A stretch of DNA of 63,621 nt, filler included, from Rhabdomonas costata (taxonomy: Eukaryota): assembly GCA_019059605.1 (NCBI GenBank). It is 20 parts of 20 records of this genome, joined end to end, with 100 filler letters (N's around TTAATTAATTAA, not from the genome) between each part and the next. Parts side by side here need not be neighbours in the genome. Positions count along the whole stretch, not along the records: positions 38,259 to 41,343 come from JAHMHO010001408.1; 19 more parts are not named here. One strand, given 5' to 3'. Made by a program: the position numbers and the translations under genes. This document shows, one piece after another, positions 27,538 through 63,621 of this stretch. The notes below the pieces were generated by a model. The model ran no database searches. It saw only the letters and a program-made list of their open reading frames with translations, and had not been told where the DNA came from. Numbering within the stretch: position 1 is the first letter of the stretch; each line of letters starts with the position of its first letter.

Positions 27538-29072
27538 GTTGTGTTTCGGAAATAGCCGGAAGAGAATTTTGATTCCATGCCAGTTTTCGAGTTTTTCGAG
27601 GGAGGCGCGCATGTGAGAATTCCACATTCCCTCCTTATTGATTCTGCCACTCTTCTCATTGTACAGCTCGGCTTCAAAATTCTGTTTCTTTCGGGTTCTG
27701 CGTGCTGTGGTTGTGTTGTTTCAGCTCGTGGTTGATTCTTCTTCGCGTGCGTGTGTTTGGTTTGTAATTCATTAGTGGTAGATCTCCTCACCACACTGCA
27801 CAAAGTCAGCCCTTCTGGGGAAGCTGGAGCCTGAGAGACCCTGCTCCTCTTGTACACTATGTATGTCTTTGCTGGGGTCAAACTCGTTGAACATCACTAT
27901 CTTGTCTACAGCCTTCCGAGATGTCAAAGACAAAATTTGTTACCGTTCACCCACATTCACATTCTCTGAACGAACCCAGGTTTCATCTCCCTCTGCAGAG
28001 GGAAGCAAATTTTATTTTCTGTGGTGGTTGCTCTCTCATCCACCCGAAACTGCTTCACATTGCTGAAACACCACCACCAGCAGCAGCAGACTACGTTGCC
28101 CGAGGTTGGGCAAATTTTCACAACTGTGGACGAAGACGGAGACCCGAGGTTCTTTTGTACGGTGGGCCTTCGAACGAACGTTTATAAAAATAAATTAAAA
28201 CCAGGTGAAAAATGTTCTGATAAAAACGTAAATCCAGGGTTCCCGAAAACTTTTTTTAAAAAAAGAGTAATAAAAACGATGCAAATTCCAAAACTATCGT
28301 TTACAGAAGCCACGTTTAACGATTTTGTGAAAAGCGTTAATTGGCTTTCGTGATCTTTCAAGAAAAACTTGTGTGCCGATGACAGTGCTGTGAGGGAAGA
28401 CCAACCTGAACAAAAAATTTCCCTGAAAATCGTGAAAGCATCGGCAGTCCTTCAAGAGCTGCTTTGCTTATTTATTAATGAGTTACCCCAAGGCTCCAAT
28501 TATTCCCTTGCAGCACAGGTGCTCTACGAAGTAACCACAACAACAGTGGCACTGTTCCGCTTGGTCCACGACACATACAGAGAAGCACGAAACAACACCC
28601 CNNNNNNNNNNNNNNNNNNNNNNNNNNNNNNNNNNNNNNNNNNNNTTAATTAATTAANNNNNNNNNNNNNNNNNNNNNNNNNNNNNNNNNNNNNNNNNNN
28701 NTGTTGGTTTTAAAGGCATGAGAAGCTTCAAGGCCACCCCCTCAAAGAAATTTCACTGTTAACAATCTCCCGCAACATTCGCGAAAAATTGTTAACAGTG
28801 AAATTTCTTTGAGGGGGTGGCCTTGAAGCTTCTCATGCCTTTAACACCACCGCGGCTTGGTCTAGTCTCGCGTCTTTGTTTCTCTATAAAATGTCTATGT
28901 GTTCCAAGTAGTCAAGGGACTGTGTGCAAAAATTCAAAATTCCATTCCATTTAATTCCATTGAACTCACATCAATGGATTTAAACCAGTCCGCATAGGCA
29001 CCGCCTTAATGGTCATTGGCTTGCGTCCTGCCAATAGTGGTTGGCTTCAGAGGGGAAAAATGTCATACCAAC

Positions 29073-32423: not shown

Positions 32424-34267
32424 CTTGTACAGCTCCTCAGCGCGGGACTGACTTTGCAGGAAGACTAGCACAGGGAAGCGAATCCCTTCGCCCATCAGCT
32501 GCCGCACCGTGGGCAGCTTGCTCTCCTCCGTGCCGCAGAACACCAGCCGCTGCTCCACGCTGGGGTTGCTGCCCACCCTGTGGCCTGAGAAGGGCCACCA
32601 GACAGAGGCCACCCTCACGCACACAGAGATGGAGCACAGCTGTAAGACTACACGGTCTCCACTGGGGCACGGCATAACAGATAAGCAAAACATCCTGCTA
32701 CAACCAAAGCAAGCGCACATGCAACCAAAGCAAGCGCACAGTCGCTTTCTTGCATGTGCCCATGCACCGTGCCGTGCTGCAGTCAAGAAGGAGAACTGAA
32801 CGAAATTATCTGCAGTGAGGGAGAGAGGGGGGGGTAGACTTTCCGGCACAGACCGACAAGCAGTCTGACGGGGTTCCTGAGCAGAGTGCGAGCCAGCCGC
32901 TCCACGGTGTCCGGCATGGTCGCGCTGAGCAGCGCTCGAGTCACAGAGGGACTGGTACACGCGGAGAGCACCTGGCACCCCGCACCCCACCTCCTCAATT
33001 CCCCAGCATCCGGTCAAGCCAGCGTATCCTCCCATTCCCTGTCGTAACAGAAGCTGCTTCAAGGAAAATATTTCACACAGCCGAGGACAATGAGGAAAAA
33101 GGAAAAGGCCCCCCAAAAGGCAAGCCCTGCGAACATCCCCATGGGGGAAAAACGCGGGGCTGGTGCTTTTTTTCATCATTAAAAAGACACTCTTTCCCCT
33201 GCCCTTGGCGCAGCTATGGTCTGCTGTGGTGATAAGACTTCCAAAAGAATATCAGAGCAAACTGTGGAGTTCAGGTGTCCGCGGGTTAGGAAGCACAACA
33301 TTATTACAAAGATAAAAGGACACGGACGCGAGCAATAACAGAAAAAAATGTCCACAAAAAGACGAATCATAAAGTGATTTATTTTAAGATGGAAGTGGAA
33401 ACTTGGCAAAGGCGACAAGGGAAAAGGGACGAAGCATAACACGTTGAACAACGTGGGTCGGGCCAACGAGTCCGTGGGTAGAAGTTTAGTATAGTGGTTA
33501 TCACTACACATTCCCATCACCACATTCCCCCCTTCACCCTGACACCTCCCCCCCCTGCCTATGTGTACCTTCCCAATCTGGCGGTGGAAGAGCTTGCTCA
33601 GCAGGCGGTCTGCCTCATCCAGAATCAGCAGCTCAAGCTTGGCCAGGGCCCCCGGGGCCTTCTCCAAAAGTTTCAGCAGCCGCAGCGGGGTGGACAGCAC
33701 GATGTCCAGCACGCCCTGCACCGAGAGCTCCTCGCACTGCCGGCGCTCCGCGATGCCCCCGGTGATCACCCCAATCTAAGCCGCAGGGGGGCATTTCTCA
33801 AAGATATGCTCACTCTCCCGCAACTCTTTTTTTTTGTGCACCGTGTCGTCTTCTCCTCTTTTTCTTCTCTTCCGGTCACAACCAGCGCTCCAGATGCTCC
33901 GGGTGTCTGCTACCTTAGTGACAAAATGCGAACTTATTCGTGCAGGGGGGAGGGGGCAGAATTCTCTCAGCTTTATCAGAGACAGCTTTATCCAGAACAT
34001 ACACAGAGTCCTGAGTCCGACACACAAAGCAGCAGCATCCAGGCAAGCGAAGGAAGTAAACGAACGGTGTAAGTGGAGTATAAGAAACTACCCCGATGCT
34101 GGTGTGGAAACGGAGCAGCTTCTGCAGCTCGGAGTGGGTCTGCCGCAGCAGCTCCCGGGTTGGGGCCAGGAGCATCGCAGAGATCCCCTCGTAGGGGGCG
34201 TTCGCGGCATGGCTCCTCCCTACTGCCTCCACCACAGGGATCAGGAACGCCATCGTTTTCCCACTGC
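32424..34267 (-). CDS. DDX52: DEAD-box RNA helicase, DDX52/ROK1-like, internal exons
   Basis: Exons 34267-34092, 33775-33569, 32971-32854 and 32584-32424: GSGKT, LAPTREL, STPLRL, LDEADRL, SAT, VEQRLVFCGTEESKL, PVLVFLQS..RA.ELY. Confidence 0.85.
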
Positions 34268-36668: not shown

Positions 36669-37722
36669 CTATGTCTTTTCTGCCTCAGCGGCTTCCGAGG
36701 CCTTTAGGCTCATCTTGGTGCGCTCAAGTAGCACCAGGAAGACCCAGCTGACCAGCGCGGAGAAGATGAACAGGGCATCAAACCACCGGTGGTAAAAGTT
36801 GTACTGGATATCCCGCCCCAGAACCTGTGAGCACCCCATCAGACACGTCCGTTAAGGGCCACCTAAGGTTGTGTGCACCTATTGTGCAGGCGAGTGTGGG
36901 AAGGAGGCATGTCAAGAGTGCTTTCTGTGGCACATATGCGCCAAAGTTGGCAATACGTCCGAAACCTTACGCGCAACAGGAACCTTACCAACTCTTCTGA
37001 CGAATGCCATCATCGTATTCTGAGTCATGTGAATGCTTCTCGGTACGGGTCATTACCGTAGTCCGAAGTCGATTGGGGAGAACCTCCCGCAAACCGGGCC
37101 CCCATAATAGCTCATTAAAACCATTAGATGGGGCACAATCCTGAGAGAAACTGGAGCGGAGTCCCTCGAAAATGGGAAGAGTCTCCGACTGGGCAGGGAG
37201 GAGCTCTGAGGGTTGCAGTCACGTACCAGCACTAACCTGGTGGCCAACCTGAACACCGAGAACATGCAGTACTATGACGGTTGCAGGCCCATCGTCTCTG
37301 CTCCTTTTCTTTGAAGTTCCGCTAGTTCCGCTTCTGGCTTCCTGATTTCGTGCGCGCGTGTCCTATATCATTTCGCAGGAGGCGTGTTGAGGGCTTGAAA
37401 TGTGCAGGTGAAGTGTAGGTGGCCGATGTGGACTGAAGGGTGCGCGCGCGATGTTTGCCACGCCAGCTCGCGAGAGGTGCCTTCAGAGCGAGCAGCGAGC
37501 GGTGCCGTGGGGTCGCAGTCCCCGCCCCCGGCGCGGCACCGGCTAACCGCTAATGAGAGGTTGGAGTGTTTGTGTGACCTGGGTTAGCATCCCACGGTAC
37601 TTCAGTGGGAGATTCACCCGGATAAGCATCACCATGGAGGTGAAGTACATCCCCATCAGCTGCGCCAGGAACACCACCAGGGAGCTGTAGCTCACCACGC
37701 GGTGCAGCCAAAGGTCGGTCAC
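36669..37722 (-). CDS. GPR89: GPR89/GPHR (Golgi pH regulator, GTG-like), last two exons
   Basis: Exons 37722-37579 and 36824-36669: LAQLMGMYFTSMVMLIR.NLP..YR...TQ|VLG.DIQYNFYHRWFD.LF..SAL, then TAG. Confidence 0.9.
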
Positions 37723-38975
37723 CTGTGCCACCCGGGGCGGAGTGGGTGTGTGCGCGCAGGGGAGGGGAGAGGTAAGAGCGTTCACAGTCTTCGAGATAAA
37801 AGCGTGGACCAGCTGCGGTGCAGCGCCGTGGTGTCGGGGTTATCTTTCCTGAGCATGGGAGCATCAGTGAGAGGGTCCCCTCTTCGGGTCGTGAAGGCTG
37901 TGGTAGGCAGCACTGGCTCTGGTCGCCCTTGTTGGGGAACCAGGGGAACGCACAGCATCTCGACCCGATCGTTATTGATCACCGAGAGAGCTTAAGATTG
38001 GCGTACATCCTCCTCGTCCACACGCACGCCGGTGATGCGGCCCCTGCCATCCTTTTTGACTCCAGTGCCCCAGTGTCCCATGCCAGAGCCACGCAAGAGA
38101 CGGAGCGGCTCCACTAACCCTCTCTCCTGAACTACTGCACGTTCCCACACCCAACTCANNNNNNNNNNNNNNNNNNNNNNNNNNNNNNNNNNNNNNNNNN
38201 NNTTAATTAATTAANNNNNNNNNNNNNNNNNNNNNNNNNNNNNNNNNNNNNNNNNNNNGCTTTGCCCTTTTTACTTCTTAATTTTCGCCTACACCAATTG
38301 GATCGGAGGGAGTCAAATGACAAAAAGTCTATGTCTATGTGTTCACCCATTTTGCCGGTGATTCAAACTGACTGTATGTATGTTTTGTTTGAATGGCATG
38401 ATTCTCAGAATGTCCCTTTTTCTTTTTTGTGGTGACTGAGTGAAACGGAGTGCAGAGCACAAGAGTTCGTTAACTTGGGGCGGTGTGTGTTTCTCCAAAG
38501 AAAAAATCCGACTGCCTCCATTCGCCTCCATGTAACTGGCTCTGAGACTTCGCAAGCCCATATGCTAAATCTGTTCGAAATACGTGTGAATACTCCAGTA
38601 TACTCATGCAATGATCGTTGCACCGCATTCTTAGTTGCGTTTTCAATTGAGATGCGCCCAAATCTCTTGACCGTTAGATGCCAAGCAAAGCCAGGCATGT
38701 TTCGTATGTGCATGCGCTTGCGTGCTTACTAGTGTGTGCAGGAGGGTGGGCCTCCTTCCAAATACGTCCAGCCATTTTGTACGACAGAATTGTCCGATCG
38801 CTCGTTTGCCCGCATCGATGTGTTGCACGCAGGGCAGGGCTGAGTTTGGGTTTGTGTTTGGGTCGGGTACCCCAAGGAGGTTCTGTCACTCCTCCTGTGG
38901 CCCCCCTTTTTCGTCTGCTCTTCAACACAGCACAAACAAACTTTCTTTTGCCACGCTCTCTGCGGCGGTTCAAGA

Positions 38976-40526
38976 ATGCTCCAAAACATGGGCAGCGTTG
39001 CGGCCGTGGCGGTGTTGATGGGGTTGGGTCTTCTGGGCGACACTTCTGCCGCGCTGATCCGCGGGGGGGAACAGCTCCTGCCTGCTGCGAAGCCTCGCCA
39101 CACCCCGTCTGCCTTCGTGCAAGCGAGCTGCGTGCCGGATCCCAATTTTGTGAGGTAATCGCGCAACCCCTCCTTGGACCCGCGACCCAGCGCCCCCCCC
39201 CCCGATGCAGACGCACGCTTTTGGGGATGCATGTGGGATGTGTTTACGAAAAAGCAGAGAAGCAGAGCAACCTCAACAGAGGCCGACAACCTGCAGCAGA
39301 AATACAACGATTCAGTTGTGCAATAGGAGGGAGCAAATGCAGATTGATGTGCTTGTTCAGCAGCGCGTGCAGGTAAGGTTGCTGCCTGTTCAGACATCCG
39401 AAGGAAAAGCTCAAGGGGAGAAGGCCCCAGAACCCCCAACAAAGAAGGAATGCAGAGCCTCGGTGACCGGAGCAACAATGGAGCAGCGCGGGTAGCGGAT
39501 GGAAAAAACGATTGTAAAAAGTAGCAGCGCAACAAAGGCCCGAGACTCGTGGGGCAGAAGAGAGGATACCGCACCTGTAAGGTTCGACGGTGAGCCCGTA
39601 CCTCATGGCACCGTTCGCTCCCAAAGTACCTCTCGCAAGCACCCGTGGCCAACAGCGCAGCGCGCGTGTGCCCGTCAGTCCGCAGTGGTCACCAACTGTC
39701 CACCAGGCAACTCCTACCGCGCAGTGCACACAACACACACAAGACACACACAAAAATAATCCCGAAACAAGCGCCGGTGGTTTCAAGATCGCTTTTTTGC
39801 CCATGCCCCGTTTTTAGTCCAGATCCTCATCTTGTCACACTCTTACACATAGCTTGTAGTGGGCTTCGCGTACCCAGTGTTGATTTCAGGGGAAAGTAAG
39901 CGTGCTTAGGAAAGGCGGCCTGGGGGGAACATGGAATAACCTGTGAAGCTTGTGCATTTCGGCTCAAGGGTAGATGTTGATTTTGAAATCAGCTCAAGCA
40001 AGTTCCCGTTATTTATTTGTGTATAAAATTGTAAAATGTTCTGCACAGTAGAGGTCCAGCGGATTAGTGGGTCCCGCCCTCGCTCTCAGCTTCATGGCGG
40101 TGCACTACGCATGGCAACACCCGGTGGTGAACTACCACGAGGACTGCACCACCGTGAGCAACGCGCCGTGCCTGTCTGACCGGAGCTACGGCTGCTCACT
40201 GTACCAGATGGTCAAGGACATTTGTGCCAACGTGAAGGAGCAGCAGCCGCGCTGCCACACGAAGAGCTTCGTGTACTCGGACGGGTTCGCGCCTGGCCAC
40301 CATGTCGTGGGGATCCCCTTCGACCCCATCCGGGGCATGGAGGACATCGAGCACAACGTCAAGCACAACGCGGAGATCTCGGCGGGGTTCTTTCAGACGA
40401 TGTGGCAGGAGCTGGTGGCCGGGACGGCGGGCACGGACCTGAAGCAGGGCTTCTCCGCGGACAAGGGCGGCATTGTGATCAACCCCCCGGCCCACCGCGA
40501 GTACCACCAGATGCACTTCCACGGGG
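38976..40526 (+). CDS. Secreted CDP-diacylglycerol pyrophosphatase (Cdh)-like HIT-family hydrolase, 5' part
   Basis: Exon 38976-39154 (hydrophobic signal-like MGSVAAVAVLMGLGLLGDTSAA) splices in phase (AG|C) to exon 40090-40526. Motifs SLYQMVKDIC, IPFDPIRGMED, FFQTMWQ and IVINPPAHREYHQMHFHG parallel the Cdh motifs ALWKIV..QC, IPT.RI.GIES, YF..AWQ and LAINS..GR.Q.QLHIHI. Confidence 0.7.
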
Positions 40527-42369
40527 GTGTGGACTGTACTGTTTTTCTAATTATCGCCGTTTTGGGGGTTCTACCACGTTTTTCTACCATGTGGGCTTAT
40601 CTAGCCTCTTCAGCTGGAACCTCAGCAATTGGGGTGTTTGTGAGCCTTTTTATCCTTTACACCGGTGCACCAGCACTGATTTGTAGTTTTGTTATGGGCC
40701 ATGTGGGGGGGGGGATGAAGAAAACGAAACTGGGACATCAATTTTTCATATTTCCGGGAAGTGATTTTCAAAGCACGAGGGCCAGGCAAAGCTTTGTGCA
40801 CCCACTAGATCGTGTTATTTTTCCGAAGGGTGGTTAGACATGCTGTTGCACTGCCCCCCTTAAAGCCGATTTCTTAAGTGTAAAAAGTTTCGACCGTTTA
40901 ACGGCGTTATATTTTTAACACCCAGCCCCCCTCCCACACACACAAAAATACAACAGCCCCGTGTAACTTGGTTGGGTTTTGCCCATTTCTTTAACTATCT
41001 CGCTGATTGCTTCCCCCCGGATTCCTTGCTGAGCTTGTTTTAGGGGAGGAGGTCAATGCCACTGGGCAGGAGCGGGTGGCTGAGGCTTGGAAGGCTGCTT
41101 GAGGGTGGGGGATTGGGGCCTTACGTGACGACACACGACAAAACATTCCAGGTTTGGGAGGGACCTGGACTGGAGTAACGGAGCCCTGACCACTCTGTTC
41201 CCAATTCGCCGAATGATGACGTTATTCCGTTTAGTGTTGTCATACTGTTGAACACTTCGTTTCCCCAGACCTGTTTGTGGCCCCCTTTTACCGTGCTTAC
41301 TTACGTGCATAATGCGGGCGAGAGAGGGTTATGACAACCAACCNNNNNNNNNNNNNNNNNNNNNNNNNNNNNNNNNNNNNNNNNNNNTTAATTAATTAAN
41401 NNNNNNNNNNNNNNNNNNNNNNNNNNNNNNNNNNNNNNNNNNNTGTGGTGTGTTTGGGGGGTTGTGGTGCGGAAAGTGGTCCCAGGGTCCCGTGTGTATG
41501 GCAGAGGGACCGTTGACAACTCGCCGCCCAAAGAGCAAAAATGTGGCTATCAGAACAGTGGTCTGCAGCAGCGGAAAGCTGCTACATGTCAAGCAGATGG
41601 CCATCTAGTTGGCACGGAAAGAACAGATAATATTGGCGCTGCCCAAAAGGGGAACCAGGCGTCGGACAGCAAAAAAAAGGTTGGGCAGCTCATACCTCCA
41701 AACCTCCAAATACAGAGTGAGGCGCGAAGAAAGGTGCACACGACCGATGTCATGGTGTTTCGAGCTTCGACACAAGCAATCCTTCGGAGCATCCAGGATG
41801 CATGTTACCATGTATTTTGGATATGTTAAGAGGAAATACGGTAAGGTTGATAGGTTGATAGTTGCGGTTCTTTTAGTGGAAAATATCCCGGAAAACTCTA
41901 TATGCAGCGGCAGCGGTAGCGTTGTTATCCTTCAATGGCTACCCTACGATCACAATTTTGGTACGTTATTTCTCCAGACCCGAAGCAAAAAAAAGTACCA
42001 CTTTCATCACGACTTGTGAGGACCCGACGCAATTTTTTTCGCATCCCGAACGAGCACACTTGCACGCTAAATTCTGGGACAGTCGTCCAACATTTCGGGG
42101 GCTTCACATAATGTGAGATACAGAGCAAGACAATTATCCCCCCGAAGTGTGGTCAACTCACCATTGGAAAAATATTGCACCACACAGTCGAATGAGAGGA
42201 TAGAAGGCTCCTCAACTTCGGGCATAGAAGACCCTGATGGAGACGACACACCTGTTTCAGGCTTTGAAATGAACAGTACCTCAATCACACCGAAGGTCAA
42301 CCCAAAGTTAATCGCTGCGCTGACACGGGTTCCACGTGACAGCAAAGCTTGTCCAAGACACGCGCACGC

Positions 42370-43992
42370 CCTCTACGGCTCTGGCAGAGGGTCATGCACG
42401 TGGGACAGATAGTCCTTCTGGTTCAGCTGAGGCTCCCGCGCCACTCGCTTGCAGAACGTTGTGTTGTAAGGGGAGTACGTGGGCGGGGGGACGCTCGAGG
42501 GGTCAGCGGCCCAGTCCAGCAGCCGTGGGTCTCGGAGTAGCTCCCACACCAGGCCGCCGAAAATGTAGCGAGCTATAAAATCAAGCAAGCCAAACAAATC
42601 AATTCCGGGTGCAGCTGTGATATTAAAACAACATGGGGGATTGCACCCGCCCATTTCTTATCGTTTGTTTATGAGCAACTCCTAAATACCCCGGGAGACC
42701 TATATCCGAATCCTTGAGGGGGGGCATCAGGTGCCCCCCATGACTGAATCTGTCGCACCCTCTTTGTATTGCGGTGGTTGCGGATCCAGCGTTTCATTTT
42801 CCCTCCAGCAAAGGAATCAAACCGCAAAAAGAACCATCGTCAGCCTCCCCAACTACTACTACAACTACACAAACTTTTGGCAGTGGCTGTTGAAAAGGTA
42901 GTGGTGGGTCGGGGTGCAATTGTCCCTACCCTGCCCTGACCTATACCGTGTCGGGCCTATGAGAAACCCTCATTCCCTCATTAAACCTGTCCTAGCCATC
43001 CGCCCAATAGTGGCAATAAGAGCAGCTGTCAGTGGTCACCCAGAGTGATCACTGCGGCCCAGTGTGACTGAACACTACTGGGATGCAAGCTTCAACCAAC
43101 CTCGGCAACCTCATCCATCAAGCGCTGGCACAGTTCACCTGTACATCATCTGATTCAAAACCGTGGTTCATCGGGTACAAAAGCAAACGACATCCTTTTG
43201 GCCACATACTTGTCGAGTCCCCGATGAGGTAGATTTCCTTCAGCGGCTTCGGGCTGGCCCCGGGCGCCCCACCCTTTCCCCAGGCCTCCCCGCGGCAGCA
43301 CTGCAGCAGCGGCCGGAACACCGAGCGCAGCATCAGGGAGACGCAGTGCACGGCGGGGTGCAGGCAGTCGTAGTACTCGCAGCACGGCAGCAGGGAGAAC
43401 CCAAACGCGGGCAGCATCTCCACTCCGGGGGTGCTGCCCACGCTGCGCCATTCCAACCAAAAAAGAGTGTGTGTTGGGGAGTCTCCATAGAGTGCATGCT
43501 AATTCCAATTGTGCAGAGCCCAACTCACATAGTCCCGTTACCCATCCCATCCTGCCATCGCCTCAAAGCACATCAGCTCATTCTGGGAATTTTGTACGGT
43601 GCATGCTATCTCAGAAGTTGCAGCGCTCTGTCAGTGAACTGATCCTTTTTCGGTGTCCTCCCAAAAACTTCACATCCAGAGTTTTGGGAAGTGTTTTTTC
43701 AAGGGGATTTACTGATTTACTTCAAAATGAACTGTCCCACAGTTTTGCCACAGATTAGCTTTTTCCGAGGGCGAGCACAGTTTTTTGTTTTGAGCGGAGA
43801 AAATAGAAACCCTGCTCATGGATCCAACAGCGCCCACATACAGGTTCCACATCTCACGGTTCATCTTCAGCGCGTTGCGGTTGGTAGGTGTGTTGTCAAA
43901 GTTGGAAGGGGTGATGCTAAACCGCATCGCGAAGAACTCCCGGAAGAACACCGTGCAGGGAGGAACCTTCTCCAGAATCGGTTGGACAGCCT
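42370..43992 (-). CDS. PC-esterase/TBL-like SGNH protein with tandem domains, internal exons
   Basis: Exons 43992-43842, 43442-43210 and 42572-~42370 in phase: TVFFRE...NREMWNL|VG...DCLHP (end of one domain), then IYLIGDST|TRYIFGGL (start of the next). Confidence 0.65.
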
Positions 43993-45409: not shown

Positions 45410-46887
45410 GTCTCCCACAATGCGGCCCTCCAGAGCCAGGCCAATTCACAGCCGAACCCAGGGCTGACCCCGGAGGCATTTATGAAATACCTCCGCCGGA
45501 TCAACTATAACCCTCGGATGCCTCGTGTGTTCGCCCACAACCCCATGTGAACACTTCTTGTAGAGCGCAAAACCTTCGCCATTAGCCGGTATGATCGCGT
45601 TGAAGATTGAACCTGCTCCCAGATGGTCAGAGTAGGATTGGGAACTGGCAGGATGGTAGTGTGCCTCTCACGACCCTGAATTTTTGGGGGCCCAACACTT
45701 ACCGGTGAGCGAAGGGCGGGGGCGGGTATCGAGATACAGAAATATTGTACATTGTAAGCCCCTTCTATTTCGAGTTTGGTCGTTCTTCGTTTGCTGGAAT
45801 CCGTGTTTTTTGAGTTTTTTGTACTTTGTACGAGTGCACCATGGAGATATGCTGAATGCTGAGCCCAGCCCTTGGTTCAGCCGTAGGTGCCGCTGGGGCG
45901 GCCTTACGCTGGGCGTAGTTTCAGTCCTTGTGTGTAAGATGCACGCAAAGTGAAGCATGTTCAAAGAAAACTTTTTTGAAAAGTCGTTGTTTCTTTTTTT
46001 TTGCGAAAGTTTGATTGATTGATTGATAAAAAAGACCACCTTGATTTTGATGTTCTGTTCATAAATCCTGATGGAACGGCGTAGAAAAGCGTTGGATGAG
46101 GACAACCCCTTACGCGGAACTGCGGTTATACACCTCGTGCATGACGAGGTCGACCTTTCTTGTGTTGTCTCAACTTAACCCGACTCAAATTGCCCTACAG
46201 TGAATTGGTGAAAAGCAAAAGCCGTTCTTTCATGCTGAAGAGTTTTGCACTCGAAACCGACCTGGCACTCATTTTTCATTTTTTTTCATTCCTCATTTCG
46301 ATCTGCAATGTAATTAATTAATGTAATTACCTCTTCCATGCAATGACTTGTGTAGCGTGCATCATTGATTGACAACACAGCGGTTGTTTCCATTTTGGCG
46401 TTAGTGAAAGTTTGTGAAGGCAGTAAAGAAGTGAAACTTTGATGAAGGAGGTGCGGATTACGCTTTGCGCTAGAGGACTGACTTCACGAGAGCAGCGTTT
46501 AGTTTTCACATGGCTGTGGTGTCATTGCATCCTCGCTCCCCTCCCCACTCCGCACACAACCGCCCCCAGGCATTAAGTCATATATAATGCGCCTTTCCAC
46601 ACTTTTCAGCCAAACAGCTGCACCTTGGCAACGGCTCCATTTTGATGGAGATCGCCCTGAGGCGGGTGTCGAGCCTGCAGCAATCCAACCAGCAGTTCAA
46701 CGTGGACATGGACATCATGGTCTACTGGCATGACCAGGAGCTGGTGGATGTTCCGAAATTTCTTGAGGAAACTGGGGTGAACCTGCTCAATTTCAGCGAG
46801 GTTCCGGTTATTGAGCTTGGCATGGCCATGCCCCACGTGGTGTGGTATCCTACTCTGATCTTCCCAACGATCAAGCAGATCTCAATG
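45410..46887 (+). CDS. Pentameric ligand-gated ion channel (Cys/Pro-loop) extracellular-domain exons
   Basis: Exon ending at 45524 (FMKYLRRINYNPRMP) splices in phase to exon 46610-46887 (PKQLHLGNGSILMEIALRRVSSLQQSNQQFNVDMDIMVYWHDQEL...VWYPTLIFP). This matches the Y...RP, F..D......W.D..L and W.P.L.F motifs. The 5' boundary is uncertain. Confidence 0.72.
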
Positions 46888-47278
46888 GTACGCCTGGTAT
46901 TCCTTTTCACACCTAAGATCAAAGCATGTCGTCACTCATCCATCTCATTTTACATTCTCAGCCCTTCTGAACGATATTAGCAAATCATTAAAAGAAAAGA
47001 GTAACGCAGGAAGGAGCCAAGAAATATGTGAAGCTTTTTGTCGCAGCATTGAGACCGAGGGGGAGAGGAGTTTATTATCAGAAAGTTCCCGAAAATTACC
47101 TCCTGAGTTGTGGGTTGCAGCGCTGGAGAAGCTCTTGTATGCTGCAAGATCACACCGATCCGCTGCTCTCCTCACTTTTGCCCTTATCATTCGAATAACT
47201 GGTTTTTCACAGAAAATTAAATATTATTATTATATAAAGTTTTGGCGATATGGCATTGTGGGGAACCCCCTCTATCAA

Positions 47279-53777: not shown

Positions 53778-54180
53778 GTTATCGTCACGGACTTAGGTTG
53801 CATGGATGTTTGAACGCTTTCTTGGCAATGTGGAAATTTGTGTGTGCAAGCCTTCGTGAAGAAGCCTTCGTGATTATCGGCATCTGTGCTGCTGGTCTAT
53901 ATGTTGCTTTTGTACTTTGCTTCTTCTTTTTTCTTTGCTATTTCAGTTTTTTTTGGCACATATTCGCACTTGCACCCGAACAATAAGTCATCATCAACAC
54001 TCCAAAGAATGCTCGCATCCTTGGAGTGTTGATGATGACTTATTGTTCGGGTGCAAGTGCGAATATGTGCCAACCAAAACNNNNNNNNNNNNNNNNNNNN
54101 NNNNNNNNNNNNNNNNNNNNNNNNTTAATTAATTAANNNNNNNNNNNNNNNNNNNNNNNNNNNNNNNNNNNNNNNNNNNN

Positions 54181-57162
54181 GTGTGGTGGGGCACGGCGGT
54201 GGGGGTGAGCTTTGGGAGCTCTGTGAACAACCAGAAGGAAAGCCTGCAGAAGGAGCTGGCGATGGTGCTGAACGCCGTGCAGAGCTTCTCGGTCACACAG
54301 GCCCGTCAGCAAGCGGTCTGTGAAAAGGAAAAGCGCACCTTGTGTGTGTCAATCTCCGCTGAAGTTCAAGTTGGATCAGTAGTATCATGGATGCCCTTGA
54401 CGACGGAGTCATTATTGGTGTCTGTTCTTTCTCAACCTTGAGAAAAATCGCTATGTCACGGCAAACACCACCTCTCGACTGCTTCATAGGGAAAAGTTCA
54501 GCGCACCAACCCTTCAATGCCTTCCTCCTTTCGTTCCGTTGGTTACGGAACAGGCCCCCCGTTCGCCACGGCCGACGGGCTGGCCTCTGCCCCTAATCCC
54601 ATTCCTCAAACCAAAATAAACTCGTCAATAATGTTGCTCAATATATTGCGCTTGTAGAACATGCCAAAACTTAACTGGATTAACTGAGCCCCATTCTGAT
54701 ACAGGGACAGGGATGTCATGTGTCACCACTTGCGGGTTCCGCAACTTGCATTTGGAGAGATTTGAAGGGCCAGTTTTGCTGAAATTGGTGGGTAAGGTCC
54801 TCTAACACGCTAGCCAGTGCTCTTGGCTGGCCAACCAAAACTCCGTCGTCGAGGGGCCCGACAAGACAATTTTCAACAGCTATGGCAATGGCGAATTTGC
54901 CGGAATCGAAACAAGCTCATCACAGAATACTCACCCTTCATGTTGTCGGCGGTGTTTTTTATTATCGCGTGCAACGTTTACCATTAGCGCTGCACCCGGA
55001 GGCATGGGAAGGAACGGGATATGAATGTTCTGTCAACAGATAGCATGGTTGTGTGTGGAAGTGTGGCGTTCCATCCGGTAATTGGTCACTGCGAATAGCC
55101 TCGCAGCTTCGTATTTCTTCCTCGCAGCTTAGCCAGCAGTTCAATACTGCGGTAATGGTGGGAGAGATGGTGCAAAGCTTGGTTTATGACAACTGGATCT
55201 CCACCGTCCGCGAGCGTACCTTGAGCGCGGTAGAGCTGATGGCCGTGATGACAGACCAGCTCTTCTTGATGACCTCCAACAGCCGCGCTCAGGAGCGTGC
55301 CACGATAGTGAAGGATCAGCTCTCCGTGATGTTCAGGATGGGCAGCAACCTCAGCGCCTTGGTCACCGCCGTGAACAAGCTGAACAGTGAGCAGCTGGAG
55401 GCAGGCCATGAGATTTTGCTTGTGCAAACCACGCAAAGCGCTGCCGGTGTTGGAGTTTCCTGGGGAACCGGCACGGTGCTTCTGAGCACCCTGCGATACT
55501 GTCCCAACGGCACGCAGCCATGCAGCCCCACAGCCGATCTGCTCACTGCGGCGTCCAGTGCGCTCACGGCGAGCACCGGGAGTTCCTTCCTGGGAAGCAC
55601 CTACACGGGGGACAGCGCCTTTCTGGGATCCGTCCCCGTCTCTGTGATCTCTGGCCTTGGGCTGATCTACGTTCTCCCATTCAGCCTAACCCAGGAGAGC
55701 TTCCTTCGCACCACCATCGATGCGGTGTACGTTGCGAACCTGACGGACTTGACGGGAGACTTCCTGATGCAGAAGAAGTCCAACCCTGGGGTTGTGGTGA
55801 CGGGGTCGTTCTCTCCGTGCACCGTGGGAAGCTGTGCGTATGACCCAGCGGGAGCTGCCGCGCTTGCCGACCCCTCGCACACCTCAATGGGCCTGCCCAG
55901 CTACAACGTTCCCAGCTCACTACCAGTGACATGGGACATGCCCATGCTGAATGCCACGATTATGATAGAACTGTTTATGGTGGATCCCCCGCGTATGCCC
56001 TCGAGTGATGGCGAGTACCACTCCCTCCGAGGGGAGTTCTTCCAGCAGCTTGGAGTGCAGAGCACGCTGCTGAATACTCACCTCAGCGGGACAACAGAGC
56101 TGTTAATCGTGGAGAAAATCACGACCGGTGCAGGCTTCAAGTACCTCACCACACCGAAGTTTATGTCGGAGTGCCAGCCCAACTGCAGCGCAGCCCAGGG
56201 GTCATCCCAAGGCCCCATCAACGCCGCCATACGATGCATCAATGGCACGGGGCTGCTCACCGATTACAGGCATTTTTGCATTTCCAGTGGGTTCATTTTT
56301 ATTTTCTCTCAACCATTCCGGCAAGGCGTTTTTGGGAGTATAATGCCCACGTCTCAAGCGCACAGTCTCCGTCTCCGTGCGAGATGAATTCTTGTATTGC
56401 TGAAGTGCAGCAGTGAGCTGCAATGCTGCTCTCAGAGCGTTTCTTTGCTGCGATATTATTGCATTTTCTCTGTTTGGTTTATTACCGTGTTCTAATACCG
56501 TTTAGCTGTTAGTTGTCATTTGCGAAAATGACATGTTATCTCTCAAGCCTTCTTTACGTGCTCTTAATTATTGAATGCACTCCGGTACCTCGTATATTGT
56601 CAGAACTTCAACAGTCGGCTTTGTTGGTTCCTGGTTACCTCACGGCTTCCAATTTTCATTTACACTCAGGGGCAAGACGGTCCTGGCAGCAACGCTGTGC
56701 TTGCCTCGCCTTGATATCGGTACGTGGCTTTGGTTTTACTACGCAAATGGCGCATATCTTATTTGCAGAAACTGGATCGACAGACATTTGCCCTCTGCGC
56801 CTTCCTGTTCAGGGCTGATCTACAAGACAGATGATTCCGCGGTTGTGCAGCTGAGTATCGAGCACGCCACGGCCTATGCCAACGAACAGAACTTGGAGGA
56901 CACCAGCACCAAGGAGCTGATGATCGGGAAAGCCTATCCTGCCACCACCTCTACCGCCACCCGGCCCAGCTCGGTGCAGTTCCTGTCTGACCTAAAGGAG
57001 GGTCCTGTCAGCTGCGCATCGACGACGAACTCCACGCCGTGCGTGTTTGACGGCGGTGCGGCCAGCGCGATGGCCAGTGCTCTTGAGGGGCAAAGTGGCA
57101 TTACCCTTCAGACGGACTATTCGGGGCAGCCTGTGTACGCGGCGTTCTCGTACTCCAGCGAG
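54181..57162 (+). CDS. Large membrane receptor-like protein with tandem Cache-like extracellular repeats, internal exons
   Basis: Exons about 54181-54300, ~55100-56269, 56670-56719 and 56813-57162. Spliced TDYR|GKTVLAATLCLPRLDIG|LIYKTD and TDYSGQPVYAAFSY match the Cache motif DYRG.PVLAAY......GLV.KID. Confidence 0.7.
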
Positions 57163-57759
57163 GTAAGTGGGATGAATGATTAAAATGGTTGATAGGACGA
57201 GATCGCCGCGTACACAGGCTGCCCCGAATAGTCCGTCTGAAGGGTAATGCCACACAACCACNNNNNNNNNNNNNNNNNNNNNNNNNNNNNNNNNNNNNNN
57301 NNNNNTTAATTAATTAANNNNNNNNNNNNNNNNNNNNNNNNNNNNNNNNNNNNNNNNNNNNTTTTGTGGGTGGCCAACATGAGTGTTCAAGCAACAGTAA
57401 TGGTCAGCGCGGGTGTTCTGGAACAGCCACACCCACACGCGAACTGGTCTCCCAGGATCTTTCCACTTCCTGTGGAAAATTGCTCCTCCCCCTCCCAGAT
57501 TCGAACATCTGAGAATCTGAACATCCAAGCAGGGTGGGTGGCGCCTCTTCCTCAATGACTCTAAACGCATTGGGCACCACAGGAAATGAGACATCCGCTG
57601 TAAACGAGAAGTCATCTCGTTTACCACAAACCTGCGAGCACGCAGCCACACACCTTCCGTAATGTGGAAGATGGGCTGCATTTTCTGATCCCATTCGGAG
57701 TGATGTATATGTACAGGAAAGGGAGCCCTGGCAGGTTTTCTCTTCATGGATGTGCTCAG

Positions 57760-59691
57760 GTGATGCGAAATATCATTGAGAGCACCAACCTGTTTGTGCG
57801 GTGGATGGACGGCACGTGCATCGAGTGCACCCTGGGGGAGATCAGCCCCAAGCCCACCGACGAGAGGGACAGCCCCGTCTTGACCTTCCTCAACGACATC
57901 TCCCAGAACAGCCAGGCACCCGCGCACCTCCGCGTCCTCACACACCACCACGCGAACACGGGTGCCCGAAGGGACCAAACACGTGCGCAACTCACCAAAT
58001 CAATATTTTAAGCGTGAGGTCTCTGCGCAGTCAATAATTGTCCATTCAAGCCCCCCGGCTCAGAGAGAAAAAATTCTCGGATAAACACATCCTGGAACTT
58101 AGCTGTGTGCGCAGGCCTTTGTTTCCTGGACATGCTCGTGTATCAGGTGATGAAGCTGCAGACCATGGTGTACCAGGGGATCCAGAAGACCTTCTTCTAC
58201 GTCAACAAGTACCTGGAGAGCTGGAAGAGGTTCGCGTCGCTGTGGACCCTGGACAAGCAGCTGTTCATCGAGAAGCTGGCCGCGAAGAACTTGACCTGGC
58301 TCGAGTACGACCGCCGCTTTGAGGAGTACACCAAGCTAATCAGGGGCATTGACAACTACCCTCAGGTTCCAGGCTTGTCCCTCCCTGTGGTTATTCCGGC
58401 TGCTAGGTGAAGTATTACTTTGGGTCTCTCCGTAAGAGCTGGCCCCAGGCCACATCTTCCGTCAGGTAGTGCACTGGAGAACCAATGACTGTGATCGGGG
58501 GGTGTCCTTCACCTTAATGTCAAGACCAGGATGGGACTTTTTGTTGCCGGGTTGACCGAACAAAGAGGGAGAAATGTCTCATCACTCTGACAGACAGAGT
58601 GCGAACAGACCGCCGAGTTTGCTCTTCGTTTTATTGCCCATCCACCACTTACATAATGTCAATAAGTCAATAATGATTTTGTTTTGCAAAGGGTAGTTTT
58701 TGGCGTAACAGCGACAGGAAGCCAGGCGGTCCAAGCCGTGCATTTTAGATCACAGCCTTATGCCGCTTGTCTACCGTGGCACAGGCCAAGGACATCGACT
58801 TTGTGTGCGTGGACTGCAACCCCTTGCTGGCGGAAATCCAGAAGGAGACCCGGGTGTGGATCGTGGGGGAGGGCAAGCAACTCAACGACCTGATCCGCCA
58901 AAGGCTCCACAAGCTGCAGGCGAACATGCAGAAGTACTCCGATGATCTGGAGAAGGTGGAGCTCTCGCACTATCCACTCCCTATGCAGCTGCATCTTTCC
59001 CCACCCGTTGGCGAATGAGCTTGCAACCTATATTGCTAGGTACATCAATGACATCAGCTTGCGCCTTACGAGAACAACCATCTTTCCACCCATGTATCCA
59101 CCCACCATGGCGCATGATGATCTCCCGGACTTTGTACCCGTGAGCTGTCGGAGCAGGGAAGCGCTATTGCATTATGTGTGTGTGGTGTTTGAGAGAGAGA
59201 GAGAGACCTTTCTCAGTCGGCATATTAAGTCTTAAGTCTCGCGACTTCTCGAGACTCCGTCATCTCCAGGCAACTCAGTTCCACAGGGGAAGACCTGGAT
59301 GGGGTGGGACCAGAGTTCTAACGCCTAGTCAAGGCCAGCGTGTTAGACCATGATATGGATTCGAGCCGACCTCAGTGCCTGACAGTATCCGTACCAGTGA
59401 TCTCCCTGCGCACCCAGCTCACTGTGTGTGTGGAGGTGCATGGAATTGTGTGTGTACGTGGTTGATGGACAGCCCTGCGACAGCATCGACGAGCTAAAGT
59501 TTGTGCTCAGCGTGATCGCAAACATGAAGACTCAATCCATGGACATTGAGATGCAGTACCGCGAGATCGAGCACTGCTACAGTGCGCTGCGGCAGTATGC
59601 CATCCCGGTGCCCCCGGAGGAGGCCGAGCTGGCCGCCAACCTCCGCCACTTCTGGGCCAATGTCATGGAGCAGGCAAGGCGCCGCGACGAG
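57760..59691 (+). CDS. Axonemal dynein heavy chain (DNAH10/I1-alpha-like), tail-region exons
   Basis: Exons 57760-57915, 58147-58365, 58785-58955 and 59473-59691, all phase 0: FVRWMDGTCIEC, YLESWKRFASLWTLDK, SIDELKFVLSVIA...SMDIEMQYREIE..Y..L..Y.IPV. Confidence 0.9.
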
Positions 59692-60990
59692 GTCCCGCAA
59701 CCTAATCTCCGGCCCACTCCCACATCGCCTCACCCCACCCACCGCCCACATGTGACAGAGAATACATATCTCTATACATCTCTTCCCTGAAATCGTCGTG
59801 AAAGCGCTGTGAAAGCGAAGGGTCGGGGTGAGTCGATCAATAGTGATTGGTTTGAGATTTTCCAAATTCATTTCACACGCACAGGTATTATAATAGTTAT
59901 GCTGGGTCTTCTTTTGGGGGCAGTGTCGTAGATATCAGCGGCCCGACAGATGCGGGTGGCGTTTCATCGAAAAACTCCGTGGCACGAGCACATTTTCTTC
60001 TGCTTTCCAAGTGCTTCACAAGACTGCTTTGGACACATTCTGCCTCAACACAGCTGCCTGTCCCTGACTTTCGTGACAAGTTTTTGTTTACAAAATGTGT
60101 TTCAGTTGTTCCCTAGTTTTTGACCAGGCACCTTCGGAATTTCCATGCACCGTCAAGGGGATGAGCGATTTCAGTTTGGTCCACATCTTGGATGAGGCTA
60201 GATTCCTGGGTGCTGAGAGGAAAGCAGGTTGCCAAACTTCACTCCTGGGCCAGTGACCCAATCATACTTCATGTTGTCGTTGATTTCAGTTGAACAAACC
60301 TCTGGACATAGTTGCTATAGCAGGCTACACCGTAAACTGAGAGTTTTTTTTAACCACGGCACACCACAGGATGCCGCGAAGAACCACCGGCATAAATATA
60401 GGCTAACAAACCTCTGGACATAGTTGCTATAGCAGGCTACACNNNNNNNNNNNNNNNNNNNNNNNNNNNNNNNNNNNNNNNNNNNNTTAATTAATTAANN
60501 NNNNNNNNNNNNNNNNNNNNNNNNNNNNNNNNNNNNNNNNNNTGCAGGAGGGTACGGGGGAGAGGTGCGTGGAGCCGAGCCACCGGTGTAAATGTGGGAG
60601 GTGAGAATAATGGTCCTACCACTAGGTGGATGGGGTGCAGCCAATCATGTGTGCGAGAACTAACCACGAAGGAAAGGGAAGGAAAACTCTAGGCCTCGAG
60701 GGCGGGAGGCAGGCGCAAGTGTAGAAGCCTACAAGGTCGGGCTTTCTGAATTCCGAACACAATTCGTTCGCCACATTTGTGTATCCCTGCCAGAGCAGGT
60801 CAAACAACAGGACAGTGGACGGTATGGTGGCGAGATGTGGGGGACAGGGACGGCGGGTGGTGGTGAGAGAATAGGGGTAAGACACCATCACGGGGTAGCC
60901 GTTCCCGTTCCGTACCACATCCCAACCAATCCGTACCATGGGAATACAACGAAAACCTTGCCCCCAACCCGGCTTCATTGCGGCACAAAC

Positions 60991-63144
60991 CTCCATCCGG
61001 CTGGCCAGGTTGACGGTCTTGCCCCAGATGTCAAAGGCCGGGCACTTCCCTTGCAGTACCCCGGCGATGACAGGGCCCAGGGCAATCCCAAAGCGCATTG
61101 CGCACGCGAACTTCTTCGCGTTCTCGGAGCGGGTGGAACTCATCTCTGCGCTGCCCCGGCTGCTGCTGCCGTGGTGCTTCCCTGTGTTCCCCGAAGATGA
61201 GAGATGAGGAACATCTAATACGGACAGACCGAAGGGGGTTGTTAATACACAAACAACTATTGTACTCCGCTTCCAGGAAATTTGCTTCTCCGTCCGTCCG
61301 TCCGTCCCTGCTTCCGCTCGGTGGTAACGCTTGACTCCGCGAGTCCCAAGTTCCGAAGGGAAGATAGAGCTCGAGGCACATCGTGCGAGGCACCACAGCA
61401 AGAAGCGGCTAGCAACAAAATCCCACATTTTTTCACACCGAACTGGAACAGCCCCCCCCCCCGCAACGACTCAGAGATGGCACTGGAGGCCATTGCAGGT
61501 GGCCACACTTGCCACTCTGATATCGCGGTGGACACTTTTATTTGGCGAACTCGAAAAGCAGGATTGCAAGCAATATAATGCACACCAAACACCAGTTTCT
61601 CCCCTCTAAAACTCCTGAAAACCCAAATTAAGACCAAAAATGTTAAAACTTGGTTTGAAAAGACACTCAAATCAAAAAAGGGCGAAGTTCAGGTGGTTTG
61701 GGATACCAACGAGCTCGGTTGACAATGTTTTTATTTTGGGTATGCTTTTACAACAAAGAGAAGTGACCGCCTTTTGCAGCTCAGTGTAGACTTTTCTTCC
61801 CCAAAAAAACCTCCAGTAAGTCCGAAAGTGTCTCTTTTTTTTTTTTGCACACAAAGGCACACCAAACGAGAGCGTCATACGTCAGACGTTCGCCAAATAA
61901 AAAGGTCCACAGCGATAGCCCTTTTCTGAGCACCCTTACAGCATTATCCTTCCCTTCCTTCGATGCACCTCAGTTTCTATCAGGCTACTTGCGAACCGTC
62001 CCGAAGATGCACAAAACTAACGTAACGTAACGAATATGAAAGATACGTTAGTGCTTCTGTAGCGGAAGCATGTGTTTGCGGGATTCACACCTCGAGCAGC
62101 CGCGCTTCCTCGCCGCAGCAGCACGCTCTTCTCGGCCATGGCCTTGAGACACTCCCCGGTGTCGGGGTGGATGTAGGTCCCGCTGAACAGCTGTACCACC
62201 ACGCTGGCGAAGCTAACCATCTTCAGCGCATGGTTCTCCGAGGAGGCCTCCTCCCCACGGCCGGTCGAAACGCAGATCGGCAGCCCAGTGATGGCCAGGT
62301 AGGCATCCCCAATGGTCTATAAAAAGTGAGGATTCAGTCCGGAACACCGAGACCTTTGTGCGCTTGTGTGGCGCTTTGGGGTCAAAGTTAGGACAACGGC
62401 GACTCCAAACAGTGACGTGTTTTGCTCCAGAAAGACGCAAGAGTGAAAAGGTTATAAGACTATATTGTATACAGTAAAAAGTGCGGTCCTCCGGGAACCA
62501 AGTCAGGTCCAGGGAGATTATCGATGGAGGGAATAGCACAACAAGGTACGAGCAAGCGCAGACATCGTCATCCATCTGATCCGATGACCAACGGATTGTC
62601 AGAGGCGTTGGCCCATTGCTGCCAAGATACAGGCTTAACTCCAACAAGTACAAAGTGGAAGCGGTGGGGTGAACGCTTAGCTGGACAAAGAAGAGGGGCT
62701 CTACAATCTCCGAAAGGGGTGCGCACAATTCGACGTGGGCAAGCCCCCACAGACGGGGTGCCAGTGTTCCAAGGTCGAAGGCAATAATACAAGAACGAAA
62801 AGCTTCTCTTCTTATCGCAAAGCGAAGCAAAAGCAGATCTGGGGTCTTTTACCTCCAGACGCTGCTTGGCCGGTGAGTTCGGCGGTTTGTGTCACTTAGC
62901 GGCGCTCCGTTTTACCGCTTCTTGGTTGAGCGCTTCTAGTCCGGGGCAGCGGAGGGTTTGTCGAGGGTGTGTACTCGTGTGCAGAGGGAGGGAGTGATCA
63001 AGCCTTAATCTTGTACACCCCGTAGAAGTCTGCGCAGTTGTCCATGGTGCGGAAGATGTAGCCGATCCACTGGAGGAGCTCAGTGGGTCCCAGAGAGTTC
63101 GAGAGCATCGTGAAGTTGCAGATGTCCGAGAAGAAGATCGTGGC
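60991..63144 (-). CDS. Class III nucleotidyl cyclase (adenylyl-type) catalytic-domain exons
   Basis: Exons 63144-63004, 62316-62091 and 61181-60991: [54 protein letters not shown]. The K and D specificity residues indicate ATP. Intron 63003-62317 is GC-AG. Confidence 0.93.
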
Positions 63145-63621
63145 CTGAGCGGAGAAAAGACGCAATTGAAGGCCAGAGGAAAAGGTGGCGGCGATGAACG
63201 GGCACTCATACCAACCACAGGAACAAATTCTCACACCAAGGCGACGTCAACCAGTTTGACTCAACACGAGCTCTTTCGGTCCAGAAAGCCGCAGATATCA
63301 GACCACACAGGTGCAAAATGTCACCACGCCCGTGCTTTTCTCCAAGTGCAGTCCAAGATCATGAATTGCCTCTGTTATTCATCACCGAGCAATTTTACTA
63401 TCGGAGCATATTTTATAAATGCAGTTAAAGGACACCAGCTCACTTCCCGGCCCCAGACGCCCGCTCCGGCAGCGGCGCCGCTGGCCTTCGCCCCTAAACT
63501 AATGCTTTCCTGCTCCTCCGCCAATATCCCAACCGCTGGCGAATTCTTAGCCAGCAGTAGTTTTCAGTGCTAAGCAAAACAATCATCTAGGGGCACTGGC
63601 AAAGATTACCTAACCCCAACA

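Follow-up and report, generated by a model that had tools for sequence, protein, structure and literature searches.

Positions 38976-40526 on the plus strand of a 63.6-kb stretch of Rhabdomonas costata DNA (63,621 nt, analysed over its whole length and called the window below) likely hold the 5' portion of a eukaryotic gene that contains an intron and encodes a secreted protein. The protein would belong to a rare, unnamed family with the fold of the bacterial enzyme CDP-diacylglycerol pyrophosphatase (Cdh; CDP, cytidine diphosphate), within the GalT-like branch of the histidine triad (HIT) enzymes, and the C-terminal half of its gene is absent from the window. The locus shows a Cdh-fold variant of eukaryote type, divergent and uncharacterised, in the form of half a gene: a putative exon for the signal segment and ~55% of the domain, counted from its N-terminus. 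Because only half a gene is present, the locus by itself proves no function.

The Cdh-like sequence lies in exon 2 (40090-40526, plus strand; 145 codons), which encodes a Cys-rich N-terminal segment followed by the N-terminal half of a Cdh-like HIT-superfamily domain. Its frame is part of an open reading frame (ORF) spanning 40052-40837, and the protein read from 40091-40526 is referred to here as P0001. The original prediction, made from the DNA sequence before this analysis, had pointed to four Cdh-like motifs and additional Cys-rich N-terminal sequence in this exon. All of these are present in P0001: SLYQMVKDIC, IPFDPIRGMED, FFQTMWQ and VINPPAHREYHQMHFHG lie within the translation, and five Cys occur among the first 56 residues. 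The histidine-triad-type motif H-Q-M-H-F-H (40505-40522, plus strand) forms residues 139-144 and is preceded by the family-invariant N131 and R136. P0001 keeps all the invariant or nearly invariant columns of its family, including G120, G126, N131, R136, R81, G82, D85, W105, L128 and E137.

Exon 2 is genuine coding sequence, because its GC content at third codon positions (GC3) is 0.93, compared with 0.52 in the intron upstream of it. The GC3 of exon 2 is like that of other exons across the window; putative exon 1 has a GC3 of 0.75, and downstream of exon 2 the values are 0.29 for 40527-40546 and 0.41 for 40547-40834. At the 3' end of the exon, relatives can be aligned to about 40546, whereas GC3 collapses at about 40526. 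Beyond this point the frame stays open for ~100 codons (40527-40837, plus strand) to a TAG at 40835-40837. This continuation would be hydrophobic if translated. It is T-rich, has a GC3 of 0.41 and no Pfam match, and is probably an intron or 3' non-coding sequence.

When we searched 1,835,955,588 cluster representatives exhaustively with P0001 using HMMER, 13 relatives were found at E ≤ 1e-3, eight of them at E ≤ 1e-10. With 13 members in 1.84 billion representatives, the family is rare, not widespread. The best relative has an E-value of 3.5e-20 and 39% identity to P0001, and the best relatives as a group are 39-42% identical. A hidden Markov model (HMM) of eight relatives scores the exon 2 frame at 145.8 bits (E 1.7e-43), with the next piece of the window at 4.1 bits. 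None of the relatives has a name beyond 'hypothetical protein', and they derive from metagenome, ENA, JGI and run assemblies. A word-indexed search with exon 2 returned no candidate. Collections of prokaryotic genomes (discussed below) and metagenome contigs were also scanned, in both cases with the single narrow pattern RE[YF]HQ[LM]HxH, so that absence elsewhere is weak evidence. Among 79 pattern matches in the metagenome contigs one was confirmed, the locus L002, in which the whole domain lies in a single uninterrupted frame of 285 codons.

Full-length members of the family have ~290-350 residues (292 aa in P0003 and 306 aa in P0024) and a common layout. A hydrophobic N-terminus resembling a signal peptide comes first, then a Cys pattern that is conserved, then RGxED, FW and GALVINPPxHREYHQxHxHGG as sequence blocks, and finally a C-terminal portion of ~120 residues. 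This C-terminal half carries the blocks F..C, W....C.GL.EGG, L.YK, VW..Y and YH.G..VTR, and a terminal GLGRGHF. The N-terminal blocks, from the Cys pattern to the HREYHQxHxH region, are all found in P0001. Between eukaryote-type members, pairwise identity is only 30-45%. Five relatives break near HREYHQxHxH: two end there (P0008 and P0011), two run on into unrelated Pro-rich sequence (P0009 and P0010), and P0013 has an insertion of ~60 residues. The position of the break differs, being after HQM in P0013 and after HFHG at exon 2 of the window. We infer that the breaks in the relatives are introns translated through by prokaryote-style gene calling, which would fit a eukaryotic origin of the family, and their placement suggests an intron near HREYHQxHxH in several lineages.

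Pfam CDH (PF02611) is the sole Pfam family matched by P0001 (E 1.5e-4, 21.9 bits), with residues 43-144 aligned to profile positions 23-112 of 224. NF003986 (CDP-diacylglycerol diphosphatase) is likewise the sole NCBIfam match (E 1.4e-4). A complete Cdh domain has both halves and about 220 residues, and the locus covers only these profile positions of it. Of 10 relatives scanned, eight have Pfam CDH as their best match (E 3.9e-5 to 0.039), and in seven of them, all except P0015, it is the sole match; P0024, outside this set of 10, has a precomputed PF02611.21 entry. The nearest protein language-model clusters were all bacterial CDH (0.82-0.86), which we take as a lead only. The motif of the family stands in register with the N-H-F-H-I-H of Cdh, its H-x-H falling on H140/H142, and the Pfam match extends to residue 144. 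In an hhalign comparison that was itself not significant, the N, the R and the last two His of the family were placed on N129, R134, H140 and H142 of E. coli Cdh. Comparison of P0001 with PDB sequences yielded nothing above chance (7mcd_A, E 0.17). Judged from sequence, the link to bacterial Cdh is consistent and below threshold.

It is structure that decides the relationship. An AlphaFold2 model of P0024, generated from a 16-sequence alignment (predicted local distance difference test, pLDDT, 73.3; predicted template modelling score, pTM, 0.76), had as its best Foldseek match 2pof_A (E 2.2e-5), the entry 2POF being residues 26-251 of E. coli Cdh. Alignment of the model with 2pof_A using VIA-align gave a Z of 15.4 and a root mean square deviation of 3.2 Å, with 197 of 220 residues aligned. 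A search of 48,161 PDB representatives with the same model, independent of Foldseek, also placed 2pof_A first; next came Apa2 (Z 8.1), DUF4931 (7.7), GalT (7.0), DcpS (5.7), aprataxin (5.0-5.3), HINT2 (4.9) and Fhit (3.3). As modelled, the family has specifically the Cdh fold. The original prediction had taken the protein for a relative of bacterial Cdh, and had named a best match to a common eukaryotic HIT family, such as aprataxin, DcpS or HINT, as the result that would speak against this. The comparison bore out the relationship to Cdh: the best fold match is 2POF at Z 15.4, as opposed to 5.7 for DcpS, 5.0 for aprataxin and 4.9 for HINT2, and there were no Pfam matches to such families.

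E. coli Cdh (PF02611, NF003986; PDB 2POF and 9XWU) is the clearly separated best fold match of the family and has the same order of blocks. Cdh is membrane-anchored and periplasmic, and the family is predicted to be extracytoplasmic as well. The two differ in the motif, which is H-Q-x-H-x-H in the family and N-H-x-H-x-H in Cdh, the first His of the triad being replaced by Gln and a His standing one position earlier. The family further adds the Cys-rich N-terminal segment, the signal-like N-terminus, the GLGRGHF block, introns and a eukaryotic setting, and at the locus in the window the C-terminal half is missing. The GalT-like two-lobed HIT enzymes (GalT, 1GUP/1HXQ; Apa2, 4I5T; DUF4931, 4QVU) share the two-lobed HIT-like architecture with Z values of 7.0-8.1, and by analogy the family may also share their nucleotidyl-transfer chemistry through the motif histidine. 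They differ in that these Z values are about half of that for Cdh and within the range common for the tool, and in that there is no sequence signal. HINT, Fhit, aprataxin and DcpS have in common with the family the core HIT alpha+beta lobe and a His-x-His-x-His-type motif, and their fold matches are weak and partial (Z 3.3-5.7).

Upstream of exon 2, putative exon 1 (38976-39154, plus strand) begins with an ATG at 38976 and is free of stops over its 179 nt, or 59 codons and 2 nt. It would encode a signal-peptide-like segment and a linker with one Cys. The hydrophobic segment comprises residues ~5-20 (VAAVAVLMGLGLLG), with a 14-residue core and a peak in the Kyte-Doolittle 11-residue mean of 2.57; a Pfam scan of the exon gave no match. 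Between the two exons lies putative intron 1 (39155-40089, plus strand; 935 nt, GT...AG), whose GC3-equivalent of 0.52 is without coding bias. The donor is GAG/GTAATC, with its GT at 39155-39156, and the acceptor is CTCAG, with its AG at 40088-40089 after the pyrimidine-rich CCCGCCCTCGCTCTCAG. The phase is compatible, as the last 2 nt of exon 1 and base 40090 form AGC (Ser) and the frame continues from 40091. A signal-peptide-like exon joined in phase across a 935-nt GT-AG intron was what had been claimed originally, and the coordinates, letters and phase are as described, for a splice that is putative and read from the DNA.

We compared exon 1 with the other upstream exons that could be joined to this acceptor. 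Within 38260-40050 there are 70 candidates that start with ATG, are free of stops, end at a GT and are in phase with the acceptor at 40090, and exon 1 is the most hydrophobic of the 70. Among the 25 highest-ranked candidates listed, no other of at least 30 codons exceeds its GC3. The sole other consensus-like donor among the listed candidates, CAG/GTAAGG at 39373, closes a 231-codon ORF with a GC3 of only 0.52. The Cys of exon 1 would lie 13 residues ahead of the HY of exon 2; in P0003 and P0024 a Cys lies 9 and 21 residues, respectively, ahead of the equivalent NY. Given exon 1, the hydrophobic N-termini of P0003 and P0024 and the conserved Cys pattern, secretion of the Cdh-like protein is plausible.

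Several observations weigh against a secreted member of a Cdh-fold family. The 21.9 bits of P0001 fall under the Pfam CDH gathering cut-off of 25, a half-domain lowering the attainable score, and its score for NF003986 is 21.1 bits, below the equivalog cut-off of 252. The 10 relatives scanned all stay below 25 bits as well (the best has 23.8), and P0012 and P0013 have no Pfam match. The family profile found no Cdh at E ≤ 10 among PDB sequences, with a chance row, 9nyi_A, at E 1. Nor was hhalign significant when the family was aligned to E. coli Cdh (E 0.19) or to 15 Cdh sequences (E 0.07), these being near-identical enterobacterial sequences only; the probability was below 1. Exon 2 modelled alone had a pLDDT of 60.9 and Foldseek rows only at E > 0.3. 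Because the fragment in the window folds poorly, the evidence for the fold comes from the relative P0024, which is only 35% identical to the fragment. We know of no activity for any member of the family. Exon 1 has no significant BLASTP similarity to the N-termini of the relatives, and directly past the acceptor there is an in-frame ATG at 40094 that is a possible alternative start without a signal peptide.

These last two points lead to another account of the 5' end, which we consider improbable. Translation would start at the ATG at 40094-40096, in frame and five bases past the acceptor, giving a protein that lacks a signal peptide and has nothing to do with exon 1. The AG at 40088-40089 might then serve, for example, as an acceptor for trans-splicing. 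The lower GC3 of exon 1 (0.75, as opposed to 0.93 in exon 2) agrees with such a start, as does the undetectable similarity of exon 1 to the relatives, although the latter is usual for signal peptides. On the other hand, P0003 and P0024 begin with hydrophobic signal-like segments and have a Cys 9-21 residues before the homology to exon 2, as does exon 1. The five Cys of exon 2 would suit an oxidising compartment, and exon 1 ranks at the top of the 70 in-phase candidates and has a good donor.

If the protein is secreted and active, its chemistry can be proposed by analogy. HIT enzymes, Cdh among them, act through attack by a motif His and form a nucleotidyl-enzyme intermediate. In the Cdh-like protein the nucleophile would be the middle motif His, which is the first H of H-F-H, and its target the alpha-phosphate of a substrate linked to a nucleoside diphosphate (NDP), for instance CDP-diacylglycerol or a different CDP-alcohol. 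The attack would form a nucleotidyl-enzyme and set free the alcohol or lipid in phosphorylated form (phosphatidate), and water would then resolve the nucleotidyl-enzyme to the nucleoside monophosphate (cytidine monophosphate in the case of a CDP substrate). From the signal-like exon and the conserved cysteines, the site of action may be the secretory pathway, a lysosome-like compartment or the outside of the cell. The role suggested in the original prediction, digestion of CDP-lipids or nucleotide conjugates from bacterial prey, is speculative.

The gene model stops short of its end: in none of the six reading frames does the window encode the last ~120 residues of the Cdh-like domain. In the P0024 model the absent half supplies the strands 208-215, 226-235, 267-271 and 282-288 and two helices, that is, half the beta-sheet. 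Using tblastn with the 13 relatives over the window, only exon 2 was found. A six-frame HMM search of the 63.6 kb with a profile of the C-terminal half had its best score, 6.0 bits, upstream at 25.5 kb; as a check on sensitivity, the C-terminal halves of six held-out clades scored 99-126 bits, apart from a single one at 29 bits. A permissive tblastn gave short, colinear-looking matches at 40564-41304 that are at chance level. Motif regular expressions for the C-terminal half, including the GLGRGHF ending, found nothing convincing in the window. A suspected second copy at 24.4-26 kb was rejected after reading in three frames, and weak matches at 33690-33770 lie within a DEAD-box exon.

The C-terminal exons would be expected between exon 2 and the next minus-strand GC3-rich exons (40527-42300, plus strand), and none were found there. 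An intron- and frameshift-tolerant profile alignment gave 34.5 for 23 kb downstream of exon 2, compared with 36.1-41.1 in five control segments. For 40527-42300 (plus strand) the same alignment gave 36.7 against 38.2 ± 3.8 in controls, and 51 of 80 random segments reached the target score; the positive control, L002, scored 175.2. A scan for GC3-rich open blocks of at least 20 codons on the plus strand found none in 40543-42376. The stretch includes 88 nt of N, at 41344-41387 and 41400-41443, and since each pair of N runs in the window amounts to only 88 nt, these cannot conceal ~360 nt of coding sequence.

Two readings of this absence have to be weighed. We give close to an even chance to a complete gene whose 3' exons are distant or unassembled. 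A substantial possibility, short of even, is that the locus is a 3'-truncated copy, either a pseudogene or a fragment from a partial duplication or rearrangement, that makes no functional Cdh-like enzyme. Truncation would account for a C-terminal half that is untraceable in any frame of the 63.6-kb window and for the lack of a GC3-rich plus-strand block in 40543-42376. Only about 4 kb separates the minus-strand ABA_GPCR-like gene on one side (36690-37773) from minus-strand exons on the other (from 42385). In the model of P0024, moreover, four strands of the sheet come from the missing half, and the fragment alone yields no confident fold. A search for direct repeats that would mark a transposon insertion after exon 2 found none. 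Against truncation, exon 2 is undecayed, with an intact frame of 145 codons, a GC3 of 0.93 and every invariant residue. GC3 falls off a cliff where relatives also appear to have an intron, as it would at a live exon-intron boundary. The ABA_GPCR-like neighbour is also only partly visible, and distant exons or assembly gaps may be usual here.

The surroundings of the locus are those of eukaryotic nuclear-type DNA, in which neighbouring genes are split into GC3-rich exons. Matches to Pfam place pieces of a DEAD-box helicase at 33539-33775 and 34083-34256 on the minus strand. Nearer to the locus, and on the same strand as the helicase, exons resembling ABA_GPCR and the Golgi pH regulator lie at 36690-36842 and 37588-37773, matching positions 143-179 and 106-138 of the 180-position profile (E 6.6e-6 and 5.7e-7). 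The rest of this gene, its N-terminal two thirds, did not turn up in a scan of 103 ORFs on the minus strand from 37.8 to 55.9 kb. The ABA_GPCR-like gene is either partial or has very distant exons, and in the latter case the Cdh-like gene could lie in its intron; long introns, nesting or assembly gaps may be normal here.

A bacterial contaminant or a very recent bacterial insertion is hardly credible. The closest named family is bacterial, as such an origin would have it, but among the 1.84 billion representatives exon 2 had no bacterial match at E ≤ 1e-3. The scan of 185,579 prokaryotic species genomes gave 60 matches to the one narrow pattern, none of which was confirmed, which is weak evidence. 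The exon stands between split eukaryotic genes of equal GC3 and has non-coding sequence on both sides. The argument already made in the original prediction, that introns and a host-like GC3 speak against contamination, holds in this setting of split neighbour genes, with an exon 2 whose GC3 equals theirs. As to the domesticated horizontal transfer proposed in the original prediction, a recent event is excluded; any transfer would be old and without a nameable donor. The data are compatible both with an ancient transfer and with patchy vertical descent.

Other features were recorded along the window. A zinc-dehydrogenase gene lies at 1481-3082. Downstream of the Cdh-like locus, three open blocks on the minus strand are GC3-rich (0.76-0.88), hydrophobic and Cys-rich (42385-42570, 43199-43465 and 43826-43987), with a GTATGT donor near 43209 and no Pfam family; they probably belong to a gene, as yet unannotated, that converges on the Cdh-like gene. 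At 46588-46977 on the plus strand an open block has a weak, sub-threshold match to the ligand-binding domain of neurotransmitter-gated ion channels (PF02931; E 0.0091, 15.9 bits) and may mark where a Cys-loop-receptor-like gene begins. Over 55044-59800, the plus strand has GC3-rich exons in a long series, one of them with a weak Pfam match to the dynein axonemal heavy chain coiled-coil (PF25007, E 0.0033) at 59467-59703. In 62020-63246 on the minus strand, the block 62020-62316 carries a motif resembling one of nucleotide cyclases, but has no Pfam match at E ≤ 0.01. Scans of the window for Rfam families and transfer RNAs (tRNAs) returned nothing.

The window contains 1672 N in total. Thirty-eight runs of 44 N are arranged in 19 pairs (44 N, 12 bases, 44 N) that recur every ~3.19 kb, for example at 38159-38202/38215-38258, 41344-41387/41400-41443 and 44529-44572/44585-44628. 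From the regular spacing these runs look like masking rather than assembly gaps. Any search for exons is limited by the 88 nt lost at each pair. Long, near-perfect hairpin inverted repeats are present at 28705-28849, 53946-54080 and 57095-57253. Their arms, 60-69 nt long, are 94-97% complementary, and the loops between them span 7-39 nt. All three are at most 10 nt from an N pair, and the third overlaps a GC3-rich plus-strand block at 57097-57174. They could be fold-back artefacts of assembly or real palindromes.

To our knowledge, Cdh has been treated as a bacterial enzyme, and full-text searches of the literature, within the portions of papers that they return, found no paper describing a eukaryotic Cdh homologue. 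The fullest interpretation of the locus joins a live gene, with 3' exons beyond the window, to an unrecognised eukaryotic branch of Cdh, derived from an old bacterial acquisition or from patchy retention. Its product would carry a signal peptide and a disulfide-rich cap and act as a secreted or lysosomal hydrolase of CDP-lipids or NDP conjugates. Taken with all its parts, this interpretation is tentative and on balance rather unlikely. For annotation, the family falls under the Pfam threshold and is recognisable only through its fold. If the interpretation is true, no Cdh-type enzyme would have been described from a eukaryote before this one. A secreted, disulfide-rich family with the Cdh fold in intron-bearing genomes would widen the reach of this HIT branch, and would suggest that protists or algae turn over CDP-activated lipids, or nucleotide conjugates related to them, outside the cytoplasm.

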